Source of the DNA: Patescibacteria group bacterium
GTDB lineage: Bacteria > Patescibacteriota > Minisyncoccia > Phycocordibacterales > UBA1550
NCBI GenBank assembly: GCA_038062675.1
Contig: JBBTWP010000005.1
Span: forward strand, 43,844-107,843
DNA length: 64,000 bases
Direction of reading: 5' to 3'
Of the stretch, positions 1 through 63,009 are shown piece by piece. How positions within the stretch are numbered: the stretch's first letter is position 1; each line of letters starts with the position of its first letter. The notes beneath the pieces are model-generated. The model made no database searches, was not told where the DNA came from, and saw nothing but the letters and a program-made list of their open reading frames with translations. Made by a program: the position numbers and the translations under genes.

Positions 1-647
1 TTTCTATAGCTCCGGGACCATTTTCCATTTTCCGCAAAGAAGTCTTCGTAAAACTAGGACTCTATGAACAAGCTCACAATACTGAGGATATGGAAATTGC
101 GCTCCGCATGCAGTCAAACCACCTGCGTATCAGAAATATCCATACCGCACATGTTTACACTTCAGGACCTCGGACTTTCTACAAACTTTACCGCCAACGA
201 TTACGTTGGGCATACGGTGGTATAAAAAACATAATCGATTATCGCTTTATGCTCTTTCGTCGCACCTATGGCATTTTGGGAATGATCACACTTCCTCTCT
301 CCTTGTTTGGGATGATTATCTTTCTCTATAATTTTAGTTTTGTTGTGTTTTATGCAACAAAAAATATTCTCAGCAAACTCCTCGAAATTGGAACTGTTGG
401 CTTTTCTTTCACTCTCCCCACTATTGATTCCTTTTTCTTTAACACAAACTTTATAATGATTCTCTCCTACATCCTCCTCGGTTTTGCACTCGTTATTATT
501 TGGAATGGTACAAAACTTGCCGAAGGACGGTTCCGTCCAACATTCGGCATCTTTTATTTCTTAGTACTCTATGGTATTGTGGCACCAATCTGGATTGTAC
601 GCGCGTGGTGGAATGTCGCCTTTTCTCGACGCACCACATGGCGCTAA
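1..647 (+). CDS. GT2-family processive glycosyltransferase, C-terminal part (5' end lies outside window)
   Basis: Frame is open from nt 3 and translation upstream of the track Met reads ...FRKEVFVKLGLYEQAHNTEDMEIALR, a GT2 'ED' region. The QRLRW motif (QxxRW, as in cellulose/chitin-synthase-like GT2) is followed by 4-5 hydrophobic TM helices. Confidence 0.75.
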   Translation, partial: SIAPGPFSIFRKEVFVKLGLYEQAHNTEDMEIALRMQSNHLRIRNIHTAHVYTSGPRTFYKLYRQRLRWAYGGIKNIIDYRFMLFRRTYGILGMITLPLSLFGMIIFLYNFSFVVFYATKNILSKLLEIGTVGFSFTLPTIDSFFFNTNFIMILSYILLGFALVIIWNGTKLAEGRFRPTFGIFYFLVLYGIVAPIWIVRAWWNVAFSRRTTWR

Positions 648-665
648 CCCTCACCACTACTCATT

Positions 666-1373
666 ATGCGCACCAAAATCGAAACAAAAAAATATATCAC
701 CGTCTTTATCATCACTCTAGCGATATTTCTTGGTGCATTTGCTATCAGTAAACGCTTTGAGGAGAGACGTCTTGGGGAAGTAAGAACTATTGAAAACAAA
801 ATTTCACTCGATATCATTGCTTCCGAAACTCAATTTGCGCTTCTCAAGGAACTTTCCTGCAAAGCAATTGATCACAGTACCGCCTTCTCTGAAGAGCTCA
901 ACAACCTCGCGCAAAAACTGACCATCATGGAAAACAATCTGGGCGACAAGAACACTGATGTTACCAATCTCAAAAAATACTATTCACTGCTTCAAGTTAA
1001 AGACTATTTGCTGGTAAAACAAATCAATGAACGATGTCGTGTAAAACCAATTACGGTCATTTATTTTTATTCGAATGCGGGAGATTGCAACGACTGCAAG
1101 AAAGAGGGATATGTCCTCGATAGTTTGCGCGAAGAATACCCCGAGCTTCGTATTTATTCTTTTGACTACAATCTTGACCTCTCTGTTGTAAAAACCATGA
1201 AATCGATATACGGAGTTAAAAACACCCTCCCTGCACTTATTATTTCTGAAGATCCACACTACGGATTTCAAAGAGTTGAAGACATGGAAAGGCTTATTCC
1301 CGAGCTCCAGAGATTGCGTGCGCAACACGAAAAGGAAGCGCTCAAAAAAACTGGCACGAGTACTGCAGAGTAA
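666..1373 (+). CDS. hypothetical membrane-anchored protein with CxxC motif (possibly thioredoxin-like fold)
   Basis: 235-aa ORF with an N-terminal hydrophobic helix (ITVFIITLAIFLGAFAI) and a GDCNDC CxxC pair. No recognisable catalytic family. Followed directly by a strong terminator. Confidence 0.55.
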   Translation: MRTKIETKKYITVFIITLAIFLGAFAISKRFEERRLGEVRTIENKISLDIIASETQFALLKELSCKAIDHSTAFSEELNNLAQKLTIMENNLGDKNTDVTNLKKYYSLLQVKDYLLVKQINERCRVKPITVIYFYSNAGDCNDCKKEGYVLDSLREEYPELRIYSFDYNLDLSVVKTMKSIYGVKNTLPALIISEDPHYGFQRVEDMERLIPELQRLRAQHEKEALKKTGTSTAE

Positions 1374-1421
1374 CCACAGAAAAAGACCGCAGGGCGTACG
1401 CCCCGCGGTCTTTTTCTGTGG
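1374..1421. terminator. bidirectional rho-independent terminator between convergent genes
   Basis: Near-perfect 48-nt palindrome ccacagaaaaagaccgcagggcgtacgccccgcggtctttttctgtgg. A GC-rich core stem is flanked by A-run and T-run, and it lies between the + gene ending at 1373 and the - gene ending at 1431. Confidence 0.8.
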
Positions 1422-1430
1422 TTACTGCGA

Positions 1431-3288: not shown

Positions 3289-5760
3289 TTATTGTCCATG
3301 GCACTTCTTGTATTTTTTGCCACTACCGCAAGCACAGAGTTCGTTGCGTCCAACTTTGTCGGATTGTGCAGGCGCAGGTTTTGACGCAGACTCATCCGCA
3401 TCCTCGGCTCCGCCAATTTCAATAGCATTCTTCACTATCTCTCGTGCTTTTTCTTCTTCCTTCGCAAACGCGCCCGCGCCGACCCCCGGCAAAATACGTA
3501 AAATTTCACTCTGAACCGTCTCTTTCATTTCACGAAACAATCGCATTCCGTCTTTTTTGTATTCAATGAGAGGATCTCGCTGACCATACGCGCGGAGATT
3601 CACCGAGGACTTCAAGTATTCCATTGCTTCAAGGTGCTCCATCCACACCATATCGGTGACCTGCAAAATAAGGCGTTTGACGGTAGCATAAAATTCCGGC
3701 TCACCAAGAGCTGCCACCTTCTGAGCAACAAGCTCAGTGAGCGCAGTATCTCCTGCGATGATTTCCACGAGATACGCTTTTACCGCATCCTGTCCACCCA
3801 TGAGCACTTCGCGACGTTTGCCGTACACAAAAGCACGCTGTTTGGTCATGACGTCATCATAGGAAAGCACATGCTTGCGAGAATCAAAGTGAAAGCCTTC
3901 AATCTTCTCTTGCGCCGTTTCAAGCGAACGCGAAATGAGTTTGTTTTGTATCGCCTCATCTTCAGCTATGCCAAGTCTTCCCATCATGTTCTTTACCACA
4001 TCAGAAGCAAAGACGCGCATCAGGCTATCTTCCATGGAAACAAAAAACTGTGTCTCCCCCGGATCCCCTTGTCGTCCTGCGCGACCACGGAGCTGATTGT
4101 CGATGCGCCGCGCTTCATGACGTTCTGTTCCAAGCACAAACAAACCACCGAGCACCTTCACTTCGTCATACAACTCGGGAGTACTTGGATTTCCGCCAAG
4201 TTTAATATCCACACCGCGACCTGCCATATTGGTGGCAATCACCACGCTTCCCTTGCGCCCCGCCTGAGCGACAATTTCTCCTTCGCGTTCATGATTCTTT
4301 GCATTCAACAACTCATGAGGCACTCCTTCACGCTTGAGATATTCTGAAAGGAGTTCGTTTTTCTCAATAGAAACCGTACCAATAAGTACCGGCTGACCTT
4401 TTGCATTCAACTCTTTCACTTTTCGCGCAATTGCCTTAAATTTCCCTTGTTCTGTCTGGAAAATAAGATCCTGACGATCAATACGCGCCACACCACGATT
4501 GGTAGGAATTGATGAAACTTCCAATCCGTACACTTTGAAAAATTCTTCGCTTGAAGTTGCCGCCGTCCCCGTCATGCCGGCAAGTTTTGCATACAATCGG
4601 AAATAATTTTGAAATGTAATCGACGCAAATGTGCGTGACTCTTGCTGAATCTTGACTCCTTCTTGTGCTTCGACTGCTTGATGAAGCCCCTCGGACCAAC
4701 GGCGCCCCGGCTGAAGACGCCCCGTAAACTCATCGACAATAATGACCTCGCCATTTTGCACCACATACTCTTTGTCGTGATGAAACAATGCGCGTGCACG
4801 CACCGCAGTTTCTAAATGGTGCACATATTTCACTCCTCGCTCTGTATAGATGTTTTCAACACCCAAAAGCTCCTCTGCTTTAGTGATACCAGCATCAGTA
4901 ATCTGAATAGCTCGCAATTTTTCATCGATTGTGTAATGCTCCCCTTCTTTGAGTTTGTTTGCGATACCAGCAAACGTCTGATAGAGATTCTCTGCGTCGC
5001 CAGAGGGAGCCGAGATAATAAGCGGGGTACGCGCTTCATCAATCAAGATTGAGTCAATTTCATCCACAATAGCGTAGTGATATTCGCGTTGAGTAAGATC
5101 TTCGGGGCGATACGCAATATTGTTGCGCAAATAATCAAAACCAAATTCATTATTCGTACCATAGGTAATATCCGCCGCATACGCATCGCGCTTTGAGCAT
5201 GGTCGCATGAATTCGTGAATAACCTTAAACGAAGCAACTTCATCGCGTGTTTCATCCAAATTTTGATGATTAGGATCGTAGAGATATGAGGAATCATGAT
5301 TAAGTACGCCGACAGACAACCCAAGGAACGAATAAATCTGACCCATCCACACTGCATCACGACGCGAGAGATAATCATTCACCGTTACCACATGAACTCC
5401 TTTGCCCTCCAGCGCATTCAAGTATGCGGGGAGTGTTGCGACGAGTGTTTTTCCTTCTCCTGTCATCATCTCGGCAATCCTTCCCTCATGGAGCGCCATA
5501 CCTCCCATGAGTTGAACATCATAATGACGCTGGCCAAGCGTACGGCGGGCTGCTTCACGCACCGCTGCAAACGCCTCAGGAATGAGGTCGTTCAACAGTG
5601 CACCTCCCGCGAGGCGCGTACGAAATTCAGCAGTTTTTTGAGGAAATGCCTCATCGGAAAGAGCTTGGAATTGAGGCTCTAGGGCATTAACGCTCTTGAT
5701 AATGGGGGCGTAGAGTTTGGCAGCTCCTCCTCCCCCGATAAGATTCTTTAAAAATGACAT
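3289..5760 (-). CDS. secA: preprotein translocase ATPase SecA
   Basis: 823 aa. Contains the DEAD-like motor (MMTGEGKTLVATLPAYLNAL; HVVTVNDYLSRRDAVWMG) and the C-terminal zinc finger CACGSGKKYKKCHG. Confidence 0.97.
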   Translation of the reverse strand: MSFLKNLIGGGGAAKLYAPIIKSVNALEPQFQALSDEAFPQKTAEFRTRLAGGALLNDLIPEAFAAVREAARRTLGQRHYDVQLMGGMALHEGRIAEMMTGEGKTLVATLPAYLNALEGKGVHVVTVNDYLSRRDAVWMGQIYSFLGLSVGVLNHDSSYLYDPNHQNLDETRDEVASFKVIHEFMRPCSKRDAYAADITYGTNNEFGFDYLRNNIAYRPEDLTQREYHYAIVDEIDSILIDEARTPLIISAPSGDAENLYQTFAGIANKLKEGEHYTIDEKLRAIQITDAGITKAEELLGVENIYTERGVKYVHHLETAVRARALFHHDKEYVVQNGEVIIVDEFTGRLQPGRRWSEGLHQAVEAQEGVKIQQESRTFASITFQNYFRLYAKLAGMTGTAATSSEEFFKVYGLEVSSIPTNRGVARIDRQDLIFQTEQGKFKAIARKVKELNAKGQPVLIGTVSIEKNELLSEYLKREGVPHELLNAKNHEREGEIVAQAGRKGSVVIATNMAGRGVDIKLGGNPSTPELYDEVKVLGGLFVLGTERHEARRIDNQLRGRAGRQGDPGETQFFVSMEDSLMRVFASDVVKNMMGRLGIAEDEAIQNKLISRSLETAQEKIEGFHFDSRKHVLSYDDVMTKQRAFVYGKRREVLMGGQDAVKAYLVEIIAGDTALTELVAQKVAALGEPEFYATVKRLILQVTDMVWMEHLEAMEYLKSSVNLRAYGQRDPLIEYKKDGMRLFREMKETVQSEILRILPGVGAGAFAKEEEKAREIVKNAIEIGGAEDADESASKPAPAQSDKVGRNELCACGSGKKYKKCHGQ

Positions 5761-5823
5761 AGGGGTAGTTTAGCACAATCAAGCGCCACTTTAAAAGGGG
5801 TTATCTTTCTGAGGACAAAATAA

Positions 5824-5860
5824 CAAAAACGCTTTACCTTGAGGCAAAGCGTTTTTGTTT
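5824..5860 (-). terminator. hairpin terminator between Lys-rich sORF and secA
   Basis: aaacgctttaccttgaggcaaagcgttt stem-loop with one mismatch, flanked by A-run and T-run (gtttttgttt). Confidence 0.55.
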
Positions 5861-5870
5861 AGAGCGAAAT

Positions 5871-5960
5871 TTACTTTCGTCTTTTTGCAGTTTTTTTCTT
5901 TGCAACTTTCTTTGTAGTCTTTTTCTTTGCTACTTTCTTCGCTTTCTTTTTTGCTGCCAT
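5871..5960 (-). CDS. unannotated 29-aa lysine/alanine-rich small protein (MAAKKKAKKVAKKKTTKKVAKKKTAKRRK)
   Basis: Reverse complement of the aaga/cttt-rich stretch gives ATG...TAA with 29 codons. It is below the ORF-track length cutoff and is followed by the 5824-5860 hairpin. Composition resembles histone-H1/HU-tail-like basic peptides. Confidence 0.4.
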   Translation of the reverse strand: MAAKKKAKKVAKKKTTKKVAKKKTAKRRK

Positions 5961-6287: not shown

Positions 6288-7307
6288 TTATAAAATCACC
6301 ACTTCTTCCTCGAGAACAATCCCCGTTTTTTGAAAAAGACTGCCTCTCATTTTTTGCGCAAGATTTAAAATTTCTTGCGCCGACGCTCCACCATAATTCA
6401 CTAAAACAAGTGATTGTTTTTTGTACACTCCCACATTTCCACGCCGCACCCCACGCCAACCACACACTTTATCCAAAAGCCATGCAGCAGAAAGCTTTAT
6501 TGTTCCATCCCTTTGTACATAAGCCTTTATTTCAGGGTATGTTTTTTTAAGGCTCTCAAACACATCCACAGAAACAACGGGATTTTTAAAAAATGAGCCA
6601 GCCGTCCCGAGTGGGGGTGCCGGCATTTTTGCAGTGCGAATAGCAATAATTGCACAGCGGATATCTTCAAGTGACGGTGCATTATTATTTTGTGTTAAAA
6701 AATACTTCTTCACATCTTCGTAATCAGTTTGTGCTTTTTCTTCACGACCAAGTTCAAGCGCCGCACGTACGACAATTAAATTTCGATTTGTTTTAAAAAT
6801 ACTTGTACGATACCCAAACATACATTCACTGCGCAAAAAAATCTTTGTCTTCATTGTTTGCATGTCATATGCTTCGACCCAAAGGACACTGTCGCACACC
6901 TCAACACCATACGCGCCGATATTTTGTACTATGGCACCACCGAGAGTTCCTGGAACGAGCGAAAGATTTTCAATACCCCACAACCTCTCTAAAACTGCAG
7001 ACAGGACGACGTAGTCCCATCTTTCTCCCGCACCAACAATCATGCGTACGCGATTTCCCTCATCCAACTCAAAAGAAATACCCTTGCACTCTACCTTCAT
7101 AACAAGGCCTGAAAATCCCGTATCAGGAATCAGTACATTCGATCCACCACCAAGTACGAGTAGTGGAATGTTTTTTGCACGCGCGAACGAAACCACTTCA
7201 GATATTTGTGAGGCGCCAGTAATTCGCACAAAAAAACGCGCCGCACCTCCCACAAGCATCGTGGTCAAAGGGGCGAGCGCTACTCCTTCTTCGATTTGAA
7301 TATTCAT
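6288..7307 (-). CDS. murB: UDP-N-acetylenolpyruvoylglucosamine reductase MurB
   Basis: FAD-binding N-terminal domain (LAPLTTMLVGGAARFF, LVLGGGSNVL). The C-terminal MurB domain runs to ...GSLFQKTGIVLEEEVVIL. Confidence 0.9.
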   Translation of the reverse strand: MNIQIEEGVALAPLTTMLVGGAARFFVRITGASQISEVVSFARAKNIPLLVLGGGSNVLIPDTGFSGLVMKVECKGISFELDEGNRVRMIVGAGERWDYVVLSAVLERLWGIENLSLVPGTLGGAIVQNIGAYGVEVCDSVLWVEAYDMQTMKTKIFLRSECMFGYRTSIFKTNRNLIVVRAALELGREEKAQTDYEDVKKYFLTQNNNAPSLEDIRCAIIAIRTAKMPAPPLGTAGSFFKNPVVSVDVFESLKKTYPEIKAYVQRDGTIKLSAAWLLDKVCGWRGVRRGNVGVYKKQSLVLVNYGGASAQEILNLAQKMRGSLFQKTGIVLEEEVVIL

Positions 7308-7379
7308 ATAGTGAAAGATGAAAAATCTTTGTTGGAACCTCTATCCCCCCCCAAAAAAAATGTGGCAGAGGCAAATACT

Positions 7380-7526
7380 TACTTTGAGTTACGGAACTCG
7401 TCGACGACACTTGCTTTTAAGGGGGTTTCGAGCGTGACGACGCGAGAATTTCAGGATTTTTTAAGCTTTAAAAAATCCGTACCCTTAAAAGCAAGTGTCG
7501 AGTAAAGAGTTCCGTAAATCAAAGAT
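7380..7526. repeat. about 147-nt long imperfect inverted repeat (large hairpin or MITE-like) with a nested perfect 25-nt palindrome
   Basis: Arms are gttacggaactcgtcgacgacacttgcttttaaggg and cccttaaaagcaagtgtcgagtaaagagttccgtaa, with 19 nt perfect plus 11 nt perfect and a bulge. The loop contains ggattttttaagctttaaaaaatcc, a perfect palindrome on AAGCTT. Confidence 0.6.
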
Positions 7527-7542
7527 ACTTAATAATTCCCGT

Positions 7543-7607
7543 ACTCTTTTGGCCAGCGTGGGCGAACCCCAACAAATGTCTAATATGTGAGTGCAGACGC
7601 TGGCCAA
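7543..7607. repeat. 14-bp perfect inverted repeat hairpin (cttttggccagcgt / acgctggccaaaag) with about 37-nt loop
   Basis: Seen directly in sequence. Part of the hairpin-dense noncoding gap 7308-7863. Confidence 0.55.
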
Positions 7608-7799
7608 AAGAAAACAGGAGCTTCTTTTCTATTGTAGGTGATTTATGTCTTGGACGCAAACAGACGCGCAAAACCCCGCTTTCGCGGGGCCTTACGCAGA
7701 CATTCGTTTGTTGAATATGCCCTAAAGTTTCCTTCGGAACACTCACATAAAAAAAGTATATCAGATTTAACTTAAAAGTCAAGCTTTTCGATTCTGCGG

Positions 7800-7839
7800 A
7801 ATCGTGTCGCGTAAGTCCTTTAGACGCGACACGATTCCA
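7800..7839. repeat. 14-bp perfect inverted repeat hairpin (gaatcgtgtcgcgt / acgcgacacgattc)
   Basis: Immediately 3' of the stop of the 7864-10047 minus-strand gene. No flanking T-run, so this is not a classical intrinsic terminator. Confidence 0.5.
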
Positions 7840-7863
7840 CCCACGAGATGACTTGATGGGTTT

Positions 7864-9981
7864 TTAAAGATTTTTTCCTGCCTCAATCCCTCGAATAAAC
7901 GACTCCCCTTTCTCTTTGAAAGTCGGATCAATCTCGATCGCTTTGCGTATCTCGGCAAGTGCTTGTGGGCGCCTACCAGTGTTCAAGTACAAGGATGCAA
8001 GATTGAGACGCACATCGATGTTCATCGGGGTTCGCGCAAGATCTTCCTTAAAAACCCTTTCTATCTCATCGTATTTTTTCATCTCAACCAATATTTGTAT
8101 GTAGAACTTTTTAGCATCTACGTACAAAGGTTCGAGTTCGTATGCGGTACGAAACACTTTCTCTGCCTCAGCAAAATCTTTTTTCACATACTGTGCATTT
8201 GCAAGCTCAAAGAGAATCGTTTGTTTTTTTGGCGAAAGCTCTACCGCTTTTTTCAAATACGGAAGTGCGTCATCAATCGCCCCAACACGAGAAAGAAATG
8301 AGCCGGCAAACACTTGGTAGCGAGCATCGTTTGGCAAAAGTTTTGCTTGTGCAACAATCTCCTGTGTCGCAAGTCTCAAAAAATCCTCTTGGTCTTTGGT
8401 AATCGCTTTTGACCTGTCGAGTCCGTTTATCGAGATTTGCGCAAGCTGCTCACGCGTCTCGCTCGTGCCATACGAATTATATGCAATCGCCTCTTTGAAA
8501 AGTGCGATGTTATGCGGGAGTCCACCATTTGATGTTTGATTGCTCATTGCATTAAGAAGTGTGGTGTTTTGAGCGATTCCTTTATAGTTGACCCCGTACA
8601 CCAACACTACTGCGAGCACAACCGCTCCACCCAAGATAAATGGTGCGAACTCGGACAATGATTCTTGCATTCGAGATGCATGCTTTGCGGAGACAACTCC
8701 TTCATGACTCAAGCTTTCAATGTATGCCAAAATGGCAAAGAAAACCATGAGACTGGTGATATTGTCGAAGACAAAAAGGTTTTGAAAAAAGTATCCACCC
8801 AAAAGCCCTGTAAGAACGCTTTTCTCAACGACAGACAGGGTCTTGTTACGACGCCAAATAGCATAAAGCGCAAACCCAAACAACCCAAGGTATGCAAGAA
8901 GTGCTGGGAGTCCGCCTGCAATCAGCCAGTCGAAAAACACATTGTGTGCTCGGTCGAACCACTGCTCTTGGCTATACATTCGCGGATTGTAATATTCATT
9001 GAAAACATAATTAAAGTTTTCCATTCCCCATCCGAGTACCGGATGTTCTTTGAAACCCTCTATTGCCATTCCCCAAATCATGAAGCGAGACTTGGTTGTT
9101 TGCTCGTCGAGAGATATTGAAGCAAAGCGGTTGAGCACCGGACTTTCGCGAACAAATGTCGCGTCGCGAACTGCCATAAATCCTCCAACAAAGAGCGTCA
9201 GCGCAACAAGGATGCCAATAGCGCCACGGCGAAGCAGAGTGCGCTCACGCTCAAAAATCGCGATGAGTAGCGTTGCAAGACCAGCCCCCGCAAGAAAACC
9301 AAGTATCGCACCGCGGGTGGCAGTATGATAGAGCACAAATATTTGGAGCGCCACGAGAAGTCCGTACATTGCAACACGCACTCGTTCCCCTGTGGTGGTA
9401 AAACTTTCGCGCACCATCAAAAACGCAGCAAGAAAAATATTGAAAAGTGCGTATGAACCAAGATATGCCGCATTACCGAGCGTACCATTCACGCGATTGC
9501 CATCCTGAACAATCTCAACCATTCCCGCCCACTGAAGAACCCCATATCCTGCCATAATAGCGCCCGCGACAAGATGCAGATTGAGGTAAGGACGCCAGAG
9601 GCCACGCACTGTGAGCACTGTAGAAGCAACCAAAAAATATGCAGCGAGGTGAAAGTATGTGACTACCCCCTCCATGCGCTCAAAGTTTGACCAAAAACTT
9701 TTAGTTGGATTTTCGCCAAAAATTGCGGCAAGAGTAATGATGCCAATAAAGACAGCGAGCGTAGCGAGCAAATGGCTTTTCTTTGGGCGATATGCCGGAT
9801 CGAGAATCGCTAGCACGAGCCACGCAGAGAACATGACCTCAACCACAATTCGGAACGCAAAGTTTTTCCCAACAATAAAAGGGAAGAAAGTTGAATTCGA
9901 CAAAATAATAAAGGGAATAAACGGGATGACCGCAAACCCCACAAGCACCACCGCATTCGCCAACATTTTTTGGATATTCAT
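7864..9981 (-). CDS. O-antigen ligase (Wzy_C/WaaL-like) polytopic membrane protein fused to C-terminal TPR repeats
   Basis: About 10 TM helices with a large periplasmic loop in the Wzy_C pattern (RGAILGFLAGAGLATLLIAIF...). The C-terminal ~200 aa form TPR-like helical repeats (AEKVFRTAYELEP..., ALAEIRKAIEIDP). The start is uncertain: ATG at 9981 (MNIQKMLANAVVL...) or 10035, and the track start at 10047 is GTG. Confidence 0.75.
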   Translation of the reverse strand: MNIQKMLANAVVLVGFAVIPFIPFIILSNSTFFPFIVGKNFAFRIVVEVMFSAWLVLAILDPAYRPKKSHLLATLAVFIGIITLAAIFGENPTKSFWSNFERMEGVVTYFHLAAYFLVASTVLTVRGLWRPYLNLHLVAGAIMAGYGVLQWAGMVEIVQDGNRVNGTLGNAAYLGSYALFNIFLAAFLMVRESFTTTGERVRVAMYGLLVALQIFVLYHTATRGAILGFLAGAGLATLLIAIFERERTLLRRGAIGILVALTLFVGGFMAVRDATFVRESPVLNRFASISLDEQTTKSRFMIWGMAIEGFKEHPVLGWGMENFNYVFNEYYNPRMYSQEQWFDRAHNVFFDWLIAGGLPALLAYLGLFGFALYAIWRRNKTLSVVEKSVLTGLLGGYFFQNLFVFDNITSLMVFFAILAYIESLSHEGVVSAKHASRMQESLSEFAPFILGGAVVLAVVLVYGVNYKGIAQNTTLLNAMSNQTSNGGLPHNIALFKEAIAYNSYGTSETREQLAQISINGLDRSKAITKDQEDFLRLATQEIVAQAKLLPNDARYQVFAGSFLSRVGAIDDALPYLKKAVELSPKKQTILFELANAQYVKKDFAEAEKVFRTAYELEPLYVDAKKFYIQILVEMKKYDEIERVFKEDLARTPMNIDVRLNLASLYLNTGRRPQALAEIRKAIEIDPTFKEKGESFIRGIEAGKNL

Positions 9982-10102
9982 AATACTGGGAATTATACCG
10001 CGTAGGGAGCGAGGATGCAAACAAAGCGGCAACATTTCTTCGCACACAAGAATACCGACTCATGCTACCCAACAATGCCCGAATAGTGTAGCATATCCAT
10101 AT

Positions 10103-46947: not shown

Positions 46948-47074
46948 TGGTTCTATTGTATCACGACCTAAACAAAAAATCGCGCTGGAGGCGCTATTTT
47001 TTGTTTAGGCTGGGCTGAATGGCGGATTCAACCCACCAACGCAACACCTTGTTGGCATCTGTGTCATATTTTCA

Positions 47075-49049: not shown

Positions 49050-49111
49050 ATGATTAGTATACTCGTTTATTAGAATTTTTCAAAATACCTTAAAAATCAC
49101 CTTCCGTCATA

Positions 49112-49162
49112 CAGCCAACACCAGAAAACCCGCCTTTTTGGCGGGTTTTCTGGTGTTGGCTG
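49112..49162. terminator. strong bidirectional intrinsic terminator
   Basis: 23-bp perfect inverted repeat cagccaacaccagaaaacccgcc-tttttg-ggcgggttttctggtgttggctg. The core is a GC stem with flanking A-run and T-run. Confidence 0.85.
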
Positions 49163-49188
49163 TTCAAATAGAGAATATGTATTTTTAA

Positions 49189-62961: not shown

Positions 62962-63009
62962 ACAACCCAAACCCCCATATCACTGGCGTGATATGGGGGT
63001 TTGGGTTGT
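62962..63009. terminator. hairpin terminator (22-bp stem)
   Basis: acaacccaaacccccatatcac-tggcg-tgatatgggggtttgggttgt, lying downstream of the minus-strand gene that ends at 63031. Confidence 0.7.

Follow-up and report, generated by a model that had tools for sequence, protein, structure and literature searches.

The 556-bp gap at positions 7308–7863 of a 64,000-nt stretch of Patescibacteria group bacterium DNA (contig JBBTWP010000005.1; hereafter the window) lies 3′ of a wzy-like gene and 5′ of murB. We conclude, with a probability of about 0.85, that it contains two conserved, mutually complementary small RNAs, here called sRNA-1 and RNA-2, together with one insertion. The genes on either side are both encoded on the minus strand, so the gap is to be read on that strand, where the order is hairpin 4, sRNA-1, RNA-2, a 143-bp insertion and murB. 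The fuller explanation, in which this order comprises an sRNA-1 gene and an RNA-2 gene or leader that work through a pairing mechanism ahead of murB, is one that we favour with distinctly less assurance; we infer that both RNAs are transcribed, that they bind each other in vivo and that they affect murB.

Patescibacteria (the candidate phyla radiation, CPR) are a very large, almost wholly uncultivated part of bacterial diversity with tiny genomes, and we know of almost no RNA regulators in them. The gap offers a candidate for a new one, a conserved RNA pair with co-evolved pairing that is placed ahead of the core envelope genes murB and secA. The predicted contacts are explicit, the RNAs are short and natural variants allow compensatory mutants to be designed, so the hypothesis is directly testable; if the RNAs are not transcribed, the finding shrinks to a conserved intergenic motif and one insertion.

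Folding of the whole gap yields −213.9 kcal/mol for the minus strand (z = −11.6) and −191.7 kcal/mol for the plus strand (z = −10.4), with none of 100 shuffled sequences equalling either value, and four of the 15 strongest inverted repeats of the window fall inside it. An initial annotation, made from the letters of the sequence, had placed four strong structures between murB and the O-antigen-ligase gene; all four are present within a few bases of the positions given, and they exceed chance. For the gap as a whole it had proposed a structured non-coding RNA (ncRNA) or an element resembling a miniature inverted-repeat transposable element (MITE), and both ideas survive, each for different hairpins. 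Hairpin 2 and the GC hairpin (hairpin 3) correspond to two minus-strand RNA genes that are conserved with covariation in relatives, hairpin 1 is MITE-like and hairpin 4 fits neither reading. The ~147-nt hairpin 1, which had been put forward as the lead ncRNA candidate, turns out to be the non-conserved part of the gap, an insertion with terminal inverted repeats (TIRs) and a 7-bp duplication that is missing from the related locus L008 (related loci and strain contigs are given L numbers throughout). What had been overlooked was the minus-strand orientation, the sRNA-1 promoter and the T-run of the terminator.

The two small RNAs

The murB neighbourhoods of relatives were retrieved and their gap sequences aligned. 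Relatives whose MurB is ~60% identical keep hairpins 2 and 3 and the sequence flanking them at ~85–90% identity, and the comparison with relatives that the initial annotation had proposed yields strong conservation and covariation for both hairpins. Covariance models of sRNA-1 (R1) and RNA-2 (R2), built without the window and L008, match the window on the minus strand at 7751–7666 (90.4 bits, E = 6.9e-20) and 7623–7534 (96.9 bits, E = 9.8e-27; 40.8 bits on the plus strand), respectively, and each detects a single copy in 49 of the 54 loci. One match to a 24-nt motif of the RNA-2 loop occurs in each of 17 GTDB species representatives, all of them Patescibacteria (Paceibacterota, Yonath- and Nomurabacteria, Minisyncoccia). 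A degenerate sRNA-1 motif matched 33 metagenome contigs, of which two or three look like chance hits. Judged from these matches, sRNA-1 and RNA-2 are a module conserved across the class Paceibacteria (Patescibacteria), found in ~50 loci and once per locus.

No Rfam 15 family reaches its gathering threshold in the gap or in eight homologous loci, and a scan of the gap at permissive E-values yielded noise only, the best sub-threshold matches being MIR6450 (21.9 bits against 70) and RsmY (19 against 57). The initial annotation had seen no hallmarks of tmRNA, RNase P, SRP or 6S RNA, and indeed none is present; the hallmark motifs of 5S, T-box and CsrB/RsmY RNAs are also absent, and all of these candidates were set aside. 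The searchable literature yielded nothing relevant on structured RNAs of CPR/Patescibacteria or on a murB-associated motif, and sRNA-1 and RNA-2 appear to be previously undescribed.

sRNA-1 (~83 nt, 7748→7666, minus strand) is delimited by the covariance model, a promoter, a terminator and its fold. The putative promoter (7755–7782) combines a −35 box TTGACT (7782–7777), a 16-nt spacer ending in TGA (an extended −10) and a −10 box TATACT (7760–7755), with 10 of 12 matches plus the TG in the promoter scan; it stands 57 nt upstream of the GC hairpin and would place the start ~7 nt past the −10 box, at the A of AUGUGAGUG. The pattern TTGAC(T/A)-16..18-TAnnnT recurs in 28 of 34 unique homologous loci, 25 of these having the extended −10 TGn. 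Downstream of it, the A-box AUGUGAGUG (7748–7740) is the 5′ arm of a GAAA-capped 5′ hairpin, the seed or B-box UUCAACAAACGAAUGUCU (7715–7698) is single-stranded, and hairpin 3, GCGUAAGG-CCCCGC-GAAA-GCGGGG-UUUUGCGC (7697–7666), forms the predicted terminator. This GC hairpin had been located correctly in outline, at about 7675–7692, and had been said with the others to lack a classical T-run, a statement that fails for the minus strand. Its core, CCCCGC-TTTC-GCGGGG on the plus strand, lies at 7674–7689 and extends to a 14-bp stem at 7666–7697, and on the minus strand it is followed by TTTT and scored as terminator-like (7698..7665; 15 pairs, nine of them G-C, a 4-nt loop, then TTTT). Hairpin 3 is, as intrinsic terminators are, a GC-rich stem-loop with a U-tract on the transcribed strand.

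The predicted fold of sRNA-1 (−37 kcal/mol, z = −5.3) consists of a GNRA-capped 5′ hairpin, an 11–17-nt single strand (CAACAAACGAAUGUCU or a variant), a 14-bp terminator hairpin with a GNRA loop, and a U-run. The same fold is predicted in 23 of 23 homologues, with the seed single-stranded in all 23. Three pairs of the terminator stem have changed on both sides, the 5′ hairpin covaries too, and the U-runs that follow the terminator are longer in relatives than the UUUU of the window. As in trans-acting sRNAs, a promoter and a terminator of its own, judged from motifs alone, bound a short non-coding transcript, and an accessible seed has kept its complementarity to a partner in evolution. With promoter, 5′ hairpin, a seed of 13–18 nt and terminator, sRNA-1 has the build of a candidate base-pairing small RNA. 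Near-perfect hairpins of 19–29 bp also stand at gene ends elsewhere in the window (1369–1426, 46967–47009, 49111–49163 and 62962–63009), the A- and T-runs being part of the stem in at least some of them; such long gene-end hairpins look like the terminator style of this genome, which the extended stem of the sRNA-1 terminator matches.

RNA-2 (~91 nt, 7624→7534, minus strand), recognized by the covariance model, its fold and covariation, corresponds to hairpin 2. The 37 nt reported earlier between the arms of this hairpin (given as 7543–7607) are confirmed, but its perfect core is 15 bp rather than 14 (7545–7559/7597–7611) and belongs to longer arms at 7537–7559/7597–7619 (23 nt, 87%). The predicted fold (−42.1 kcal/mol, z = −6.0) has a 20-pair stem made up of P1 (CUCCUGU/ACGGGAA) and P2 (CUUUUGGCCAGCG/CGCUGGCCAAAAG), both within 7534..7624, which closes a near-invariant 39-nt apical loop, GCUGCACUCACAUAUUAGACAUUUGUUGGAG-YUCG-CACC. 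This loop includes the segments A′ (GCACUCACAUA, 7594–7584) and B′ (AGACAUUUGUUGG, 7581–7569) and the mini-hairpin P3 (GGG-UUCG-CCC, 7569–7560). Compensatory double changes are found at 15 of the 20 stem pairs. The length of the loop changes by single nucleotides between lineages, which argues that RNA-2 is noncoding. A putative promoter read from the sequence (7631–7659, minus strand; −35 TTGCGT at 7659–7654, 17-nt spacer, −10 TACAAT at 7636–7631) precedes RNA-2, and a TACAAT/TATACT/TATAAT hexamer stands 8–20 nt 5′ of the stem in ~22 of 29 unique loci (counted by eye); the evidence for this promoter is weaker than that for the sRNA-1 promoter. A GAAA-tetraloop 11-nt receptor, considered for the RNA-2 stem because of its variants UAUGG/CCUUAAG, was dismissed as a plain stem variant.

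An 87-aa open reading frame (ORF; 7519–7782, minus strand) covers hairpins 2 and 3, but it is spurious, given the 1-nt indels and the variable spacer of 68–1624 nt among homologues. A coding reading, whether of this ORF or of a peptide starting in the RNA-2 stem, was rejected on the 1-nt indels of the loop (L021–L025, L054), on start codons that are not conserved and on stems that covary. The ORF begins at the TTG of the sRNA-1 −35 box and crosses both RNA genes, and is thus an annotation trap; this and similar calls should be treated as spurious.

A further possibility is that the hairpins act as DNA throughout, as operator-like repeats that bind protein, an invertible switch bounded by inverted repeats, or repeats of the REP or MITE type. 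Hairpin 1 is truly a DNA-level insertion, hairpin 4 is without RNA-type support, the inverted repeats fold almost equally on both strands, and other MITE-like hairpins cluster here in relatives. However, substitutions in hairpins 2 and 3 keep G-U pairs on the minus strand only, there are 13–14 G-U/A-U alternations in the terminator and P2, besides an A-to-G change in the L011 seed and the single-nucleotide polymorphism (SNP) of L002, and with the structure-aware model the minus strand reaches 97 bits as against 41 for the plus strand. The stems change in sequence yet keep their pairing, unlike operators, and the interior of hairpin 1 has one orientation in all strain contigs. A role confined to DNA is therefore highly improbable for the gap, and hairpins 2 and 3 are better read as RNA.

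Complementarity of sRNA-1 and RNA-2

Two segments of sRNA-1 could pair with the RNA-2 loop. Its 5′ end (A) is complementary over ~9–15 bp to the 5′ half of that loop (A′), and its seed together with the 3′ arm of the hairpin (B) is complementary over ~12–20 bp to the 3′ half (B′), into P3. RNAalifold returned 45 pairs, 21 of them with compensatory double changes, and intermolecular covariation was counted on a concatenated alignment of 27 genomes. For the full structure with both intermolecular helices, 94.6% of cells are paired, compared with 38–52% when the partners are slid by 1–3 columns, and 25 pairs have changed on both sides, compared with 5–10 in the slid controls; none of 500 shuffles reached the observed values. 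The A·A′ helix is 95.9% paired with three pairs changed on both sides, and B·B′ is 85% paired. Cognate duplex energies range from −9 to −25 kcal/mol for A and from −15 to −24 kcal/mol for B, while shuffled loops give −6 to −10 kcal/mol and 0–7 of 500 equal the cognate value.

Natural variants retain this pairing in several ways. L009, L012 and L015 have AAGUGAGUG in sRNA-1 and CACUCACUU in RNA-2 in place of AUGUGAGUG/CACUCACAU, a U-to-A change compensated by an A-to-U change. L031, L043, L045 and L050 have lost 2 nt in both A and A′ and gained 2 nt in both B (CCAAAACAAA) and B′ (UUUGUUUUGG); when matched seed insertions are counted, L054 is also included (L031, L043, L050, L054). Further variants in both RNAs are found in L054, L034/L042 and L061, again with pairing retained.

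These matched changes bear on the proposal that the complementarity is a relic of an inverted duplication and that each RNA has other targets. The reverse complement of the 5′ part of sRNA-1, circularly permuted, gives the RNA-2 loop, one seed variant is uncompensated in RNA-2, and the scan for other targets covered 64 kb of the genome. A relic would, however, decay, whereas matched indels and double substitutions keep the pairing across deep lineages, and no other site in the window rises above the chance complementarity of 10–12 nt for either RNA. Such an origin seems scarcely credible, and mutual binding of sRNA-1 and RNA-2 remains the explanation that we prefer.

We regard the two RNAs as separate genes on account of the conserved promoter that sRNA-1 has of its own, its covarying terminator, the spacing of 68–1624 nt and the occurrence of sRNA-1 alone in L041 and L057. 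The spacing between the RNAs is nevertheless 68–94 nt (conserved-core start to start) in most loci, and this proximity would suit a single ~215-nt pseudoknotted, riboswitch-like murB leader, in which the sRNA-1 terminator is internal and A·A′ and B·B′ are intramolecular. A conserved element upstream of one gene fits such a leader, as does the weak U-tract after the sRNA-1 hairpin of the window, which is only UUUU, and read-through there would join both RNAs in one molecule. It is very unlikely all the same, in that the parts can be 923–1624 nt apart with other sequence inserted, a −10 box is conserved before RNA-2 in most loci, and good U-runs follow the sRNA-1 hairpin in most relatives; moreover, A·A′ and B·B′ cross each other and P1/P2, which makes for an awkward intramolecular topology. 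sRNA-1 homologues without RNA-2 in the available downstream sequence lie at 5298–5384 in L041, 2532–2618 in L057 and 636–708 in L037 (84 and 56 bits), with a large protein gene downstream of sRNA-1 in L041; in these three the RNA-2 partner may be elsewhere in the genome or may have been lost.

With two separate RNAs, the strand order round the RNA-2 loop is P2 5′ strand, A′(A), sRNA-1 hairpin, B(B′) and P2 3′ strand, and 0–3 nt of RNA-2 link the far ends of the two intermolecular helices; the complex is predicted to be a two-RNA four-way junction. In the proposed pathway, the sRNA-1 seed would touch the RNA-2 loop, strand exchange would then unwind the base of the sRNA-1 hairpin and P3 of RNA-2, and a junction of RNA-2 P2, A·A′, the sRNA-1 hairpin and B·B′ would form. 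This complex would set the transcript or translation reaching murB–secA, by way of termination, of cleavage of the long duplex by an RNase or of ribosome access. The 143-bp insertion came later, just 3′ of RNA-2.

The pathway resembles that of CopA–CopT, in which a loop contact is described as maturing into a four-way junction whose helices lie side by side (Kolb et al. 2000, cited in PMC10798244). As in CopA–CopT of plasmid R1 and in pT181/pIP501, a small hairpin RNA with a single strand would bind the apical loop of a leader hairpin, in the present case by prediction, and pairing on both sides of the loop leads one to expect, on the CopA–CopT pattern as there described, helices side by side in an extended kissing complex or four-way junction instead of one full duplex. 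Control of a downstream gene is the outcome in systems of this type and is what we infer here. Unlike them, the present RNAs are in tandem on the same strand, 68–1624 nt apart, and their complementarity falls into two blocks in permuted order; since they are not antisense transcripts of one locus, partial complementarity needs co-evolution to persist. The pair is also chromosomal and class-wide in Patescibacteria, and is linked to murB–secA rather than to a replication initiator. Cis-antisense countertranscripts come from the opposite strand with full complementarity, neither of which applies here, and the resemblance is mechanistic only. The kissing four-way-junction architecture of plasmid antisense control would thus be built here from two tandem genes of the same strand. 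A base-pairing sRNA with a structured partner is a known kind of system; a tandem, co-evolving four-way-junction design across a class of Patescibacteria is a new form of it.

Trans-encoded sRNAs and sponge pairs offer a second comparison. sRNA-1 shares their build, with a strong promoter of its own, and its most conserved single strand is the one that pairs with the partner. It differs from trans-encoded sRNAs in that the partner is a short, highly structured and more conserved neighbouring RNA, not the ribosome-binding site of an mRNA, and in that the second pairing site requires the hairpin of sRNA-1 itself to open.

Relation to murB and secA

In 39 of the 44 informative loci, some of them from lineages in which MurB is 38–39% identical, RNA-2 is found 9–225 nt 5′ of the murB start, and so has the conserved position directly upstream of a gene that is characteristic of cis-acting leaders. 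The 3′ arm of P1 carries the sole Shine-Dalgarno-like sequence in some lineages, and in L061 this arm, GGGGAG, lies 5 nt from the murB AUG. The RNA-2 stem ends 13 nt from the AUG in L034/L042, and in L022, L058 and L062 it is followed by a U5–6 run with the AUG 13–15 nt further on, a distance so short that there is no room for a separate promoter. Since RNA-2 stands directly before murB–secA and in some lineages is the 5′ untranslated region, formation of the complex may control murB–secA output. As for an expression platform, some loci have a hairpin with a U-run or a Shine-Dalgarno arm and others a separate terminator, and no alternative fold was found among them. Regulation of murB–secA by the pair is in our view plausible, not established, and stands at somewhat less than even odds.

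T-box leaders offer a further parallel in two respects: a structured leader recognises an RNA at two sites, and in some lineages a terminator or Shine-Dalgarno helix lies downstream. Unlike T-boxes, RNA-2 has no T-box sequence, no Stem I architecture and no Rfam match, its ligand would be a dedicated sRNA rather than a tRNA, and no alternative antiterminator fold was identified. If the pair does work as an attenuator, murB–secA, and hence cell-wall synthesis and secretion, would be coupled to some global signal.

Several observations weigh against the explanation that we favour. The promoters and terminators are motif matches, though conserved ones, and the four-way junction is only a paper model. 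Independent events of covariation between the two RNAs are few, perhaps 4–6, and in a comparison of cognate and non-cognate energies across seven divergent pairs the advantage of the cognate combination was modest, 113 of 5040 permutations doing as well. The weak discrimination of this test is due to the conserved cores, and the table of variants and the column counts are more informative than the permutation test. A common seed variant of sRNA-1, CAUCCAACGAAAGUCU (L013, L016, L021, L022, L025, L035, L039), is not accompanied by a change in RNA-2 and pairs only after a register shift, with one A·A mismatch. At murB itself, a separate canonical terminator follows RNA-2 in at least 12 of 30 unique loci by a strict scan, and in more by eye, and several of the loci with this terminator have a −10-like TATGAT/TATAAT 7–12 nt before the murB ATG; the terminator and the −10-like box, as sequence features, suggest an independent RNA-2 gene and a leaderless murB, which they fit better than a leader. 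Other genes stand between RNA-2 and murB in L013 and L016, murB is missing at this place in L017, L045 and L050, where secA follows directly, and in the window the 143-bp insertion, within 225 nt in all, separates RNA-2 from murB.

In L014, L018, L026, L031 and L043, GGGGCTTTTCGTTATGAT follows the RNA-2 terminator; it is common to several species and ends 7–12 nt before the murB ATG, which points to a leaderless murB mRNA with its promoter here, or to a conserved terminator–promoter cassette.

In a rival reading, the two RNAs form a stable two-part structural RNA or ribonucleoprotein (RNP), housekeeping or catalytic, and adjacency to murB is inherited gene order only. Conservation is very high for a regulator, with an RNA-2 loop that is near-invariant where MurB is 55–63% identical, and the invariant AACGAA in the seed is conserved beyond the needs of pairing. 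Two of the hairpins have GNRA tetraloops and there is a UUCG-type mini-hairpin, the whole wzy–RNAs–murB–secA block is syntenic, and a dedicated terminator follows RNA-2 in many loci. We nevertheless consider such a structural RNA unlikely, since no protein partner or catalytic motif is evident, insertions pile up freely between the RNA genes while RNA-2 stays tight to the murB start, RNA-2 overlaps the ribosome-binding region in the most divergent lineages, and sRNA-1 can lack an adjacent RNA-2. A stronger claim for sRNA-1 and RNA-2, as a new class-wide two-RNA device that is either an RNA-sensing attenuator, with the sRNA as ligand of the murB–secA leader, or a stable two-part RNA or RNP with a biochemical role of its own, is to be viewed as doubtful.

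The 143-bp insertion, hairpin 4 and flanking genes

The insertion (hairpin 1) occupies 7382–7524, and the 7-bp target-site duplication TAAGTAT (minus-strand reading) is read directly from the sequence on either side of it, at 7525–7531 (copy 1) and 7375–7381 (copy 2). Of the hairpin described earlier at 7380–7526, the presence is borne out and the extent slightly corrected, the outer arms being at 7382–7399/7507–7524 (18 nt, 94%) and the inner arms, 19 nt and perfect, at 7405–7423/7482–7500. A symmetric site does lie at 7454–7478, but what had been called a perfect 25-nt palindrome has 11-nt perfect arms and a 3-nt centre. The TIRs read CTTTGA(T/G)TTACGGAACTC, with the terminal sequence CTTTGAKTTACGGAACTC, as would be expected of a MITE. 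The insertion folds at −67.6 kcal/mol (z = −12.8) with the central 11-bp hairpin at 7454–7478, and all six of its frames are short or interrupted, which agrees with the small, noncoding character of MITEs.

In L008, the closest available relative (MurB 88% identical), hairpin 2 is almost unchanged and the large hairpin is absent. The empty site there, ...GGGAATCATTAAGCAT|TTGCCTCTGC..., has a single TAAGCAT where the filled site of the window reads TAAGTAT[143 bp]TAAGTAT TTGCCTCTGC, and the flanks are otherwise colinear. TIRs together with a target duplication mark insertions of the transposon type, so that the MITE-like part of the initial proposal is upheld for hairpin 1. A deletion through microhomology in L008 would produce this pattern as well, but the insertion is missing from more distant relatives too. 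It lies 10 nt past the end of RNA-2, in the place of the RNA-2 terminator of relatives.

Further copies, the evidence by which the initial annotation would have recognized a MITE, did not appear: there is no second copy in the 64-kb window and ~350 kb of related loci (blastn) or in viral contigs (exact-arm scan), and the longest open frame of the insertion has no match as a called ORF in the protein collection. With multiple copies lacking in the searched DNA, the insertion is MITE-like in anatomy and its status as a MITE is unproven. Like bacterial MITEs (Correia, RUP, ERIC and further non-autonomous IS derivatives), hairpin 1 is ~150 bp long with no ORF, has TIRs and a direct duplication, is intergenic beside a terminator-like structure and is missing from a close relative; unlike them it has one known copy, and its 7-bp duplication does not point to any particular transposase family. 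No parent IS with matching ends came to light, and no transposase stood out among the genes that public contigs show near the locus, the window ORFs having been given no transposase screen. Empty-site or inverted alleles in the same population were looked for in contigs with murB or the wzy-like gene, all of which show one arrangement; L001, L002, L003, L063 and L064, as assembled contigs, share one orientation, which is not what an inverton would give.

Four Logan contigs from four sequencing runs (L004–L007) all stop at exactly 7444, at a distance of 9 nt from the middle of the 143-bp hairpin. Coverage may dip within the hairpin, or a variant may have gone unseen; the ends are not explained by the single SNP at 7469. 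This SNP, seen in L002 as a minus-strand A-to-G change in the central 11-bp hairpin, alone distinguishes the gap sequences of two strain contigs, and it keeps a G-U pair in the minus-strand RNA, where the other strand would get a C-A mismatch.

Long hairpin insertions are common around the locus in relatives. A different MITE-like family of ~138 bp, CCCCCACACCTACTTTTGCAT...TGCAAAAGTAGGTGTGGGGG, adjoins the RNA locus in two species (2068–2205 in L012; ~939–968, 1175–1209 and 1270–1304 in L017), the 5.5-kb contig L017 having at least two copies, and other long hairpin insertions lie in the interval between promoter and RNA-2 (L023, L026) and in that between RNA-2 and murB (L023, L043, L054). Long-hairpin insertions of other families around the locus indicate that such elements are evidently active in the clade.

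Hairpin 4 (7798–7838) stands 25 nt after the stop codon of the wzy-like gene. It is perfect, as reported earlier for 7800–7839, with a stem of 15 bp rather than 14 (7798–7812/7824–7838) and an 11-nt loop, and together with a small neighbouring hairpin it folds at −34 kcal/mol (z = −5.9). Among the related loci searched it is confined to contigs of this strain; neither strand shows a U-tract for it, and no target duplication can be recognised. In relatives the −35 box of sRNA-1 directly adjoins the stop codon of the wzy-like gene, from which we take hairpin 4 to be extra sequence.

The wzy-like gene itself (7864–10047, minus strand; stop codon 7864–7866) encodes an O-antigen-ligase-like Wzy_C domain (Pfam PF04932, 9.7e-22) with TPR families, and its product is called as 700 aa in public contigs. 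On the other side, murB (UDP-N-acetylenolpyruvoylglucosamine reductase; 6288–7307, minus strand; Pfam PF02873, PF01565) has secA next downstream; the MurB of the window is identical to a protein named murB from a Patescibacteria metagenome-assembled genome and is also found on contigs from Hainich groundwater well H41. A homopolymer tract, T8G8 (7345–7360, minus strand; direct reading), lies outside the conserved RNAs ~38 nt 5′ of the murB start codon and has the same length in the three strain contigs examined, L008 carrying T7-AG-A7 at the corresponding position; the tract may be prone to slippage or may form a weak A-U/G-U hairpin. Beyond murB, the AT-rich 528-bp murB–secA gap contains a 29-aa lysine-rich ORF (MAAKKKAKKVAKKKTTKKVAKKKTAKRRK) at 5871–5960 on the minus strand, followed by a hairpin at 5822–5859, and a gene of 29–33 aa is called at this position in public contigs, including L009, whose MurB is 63% identical.

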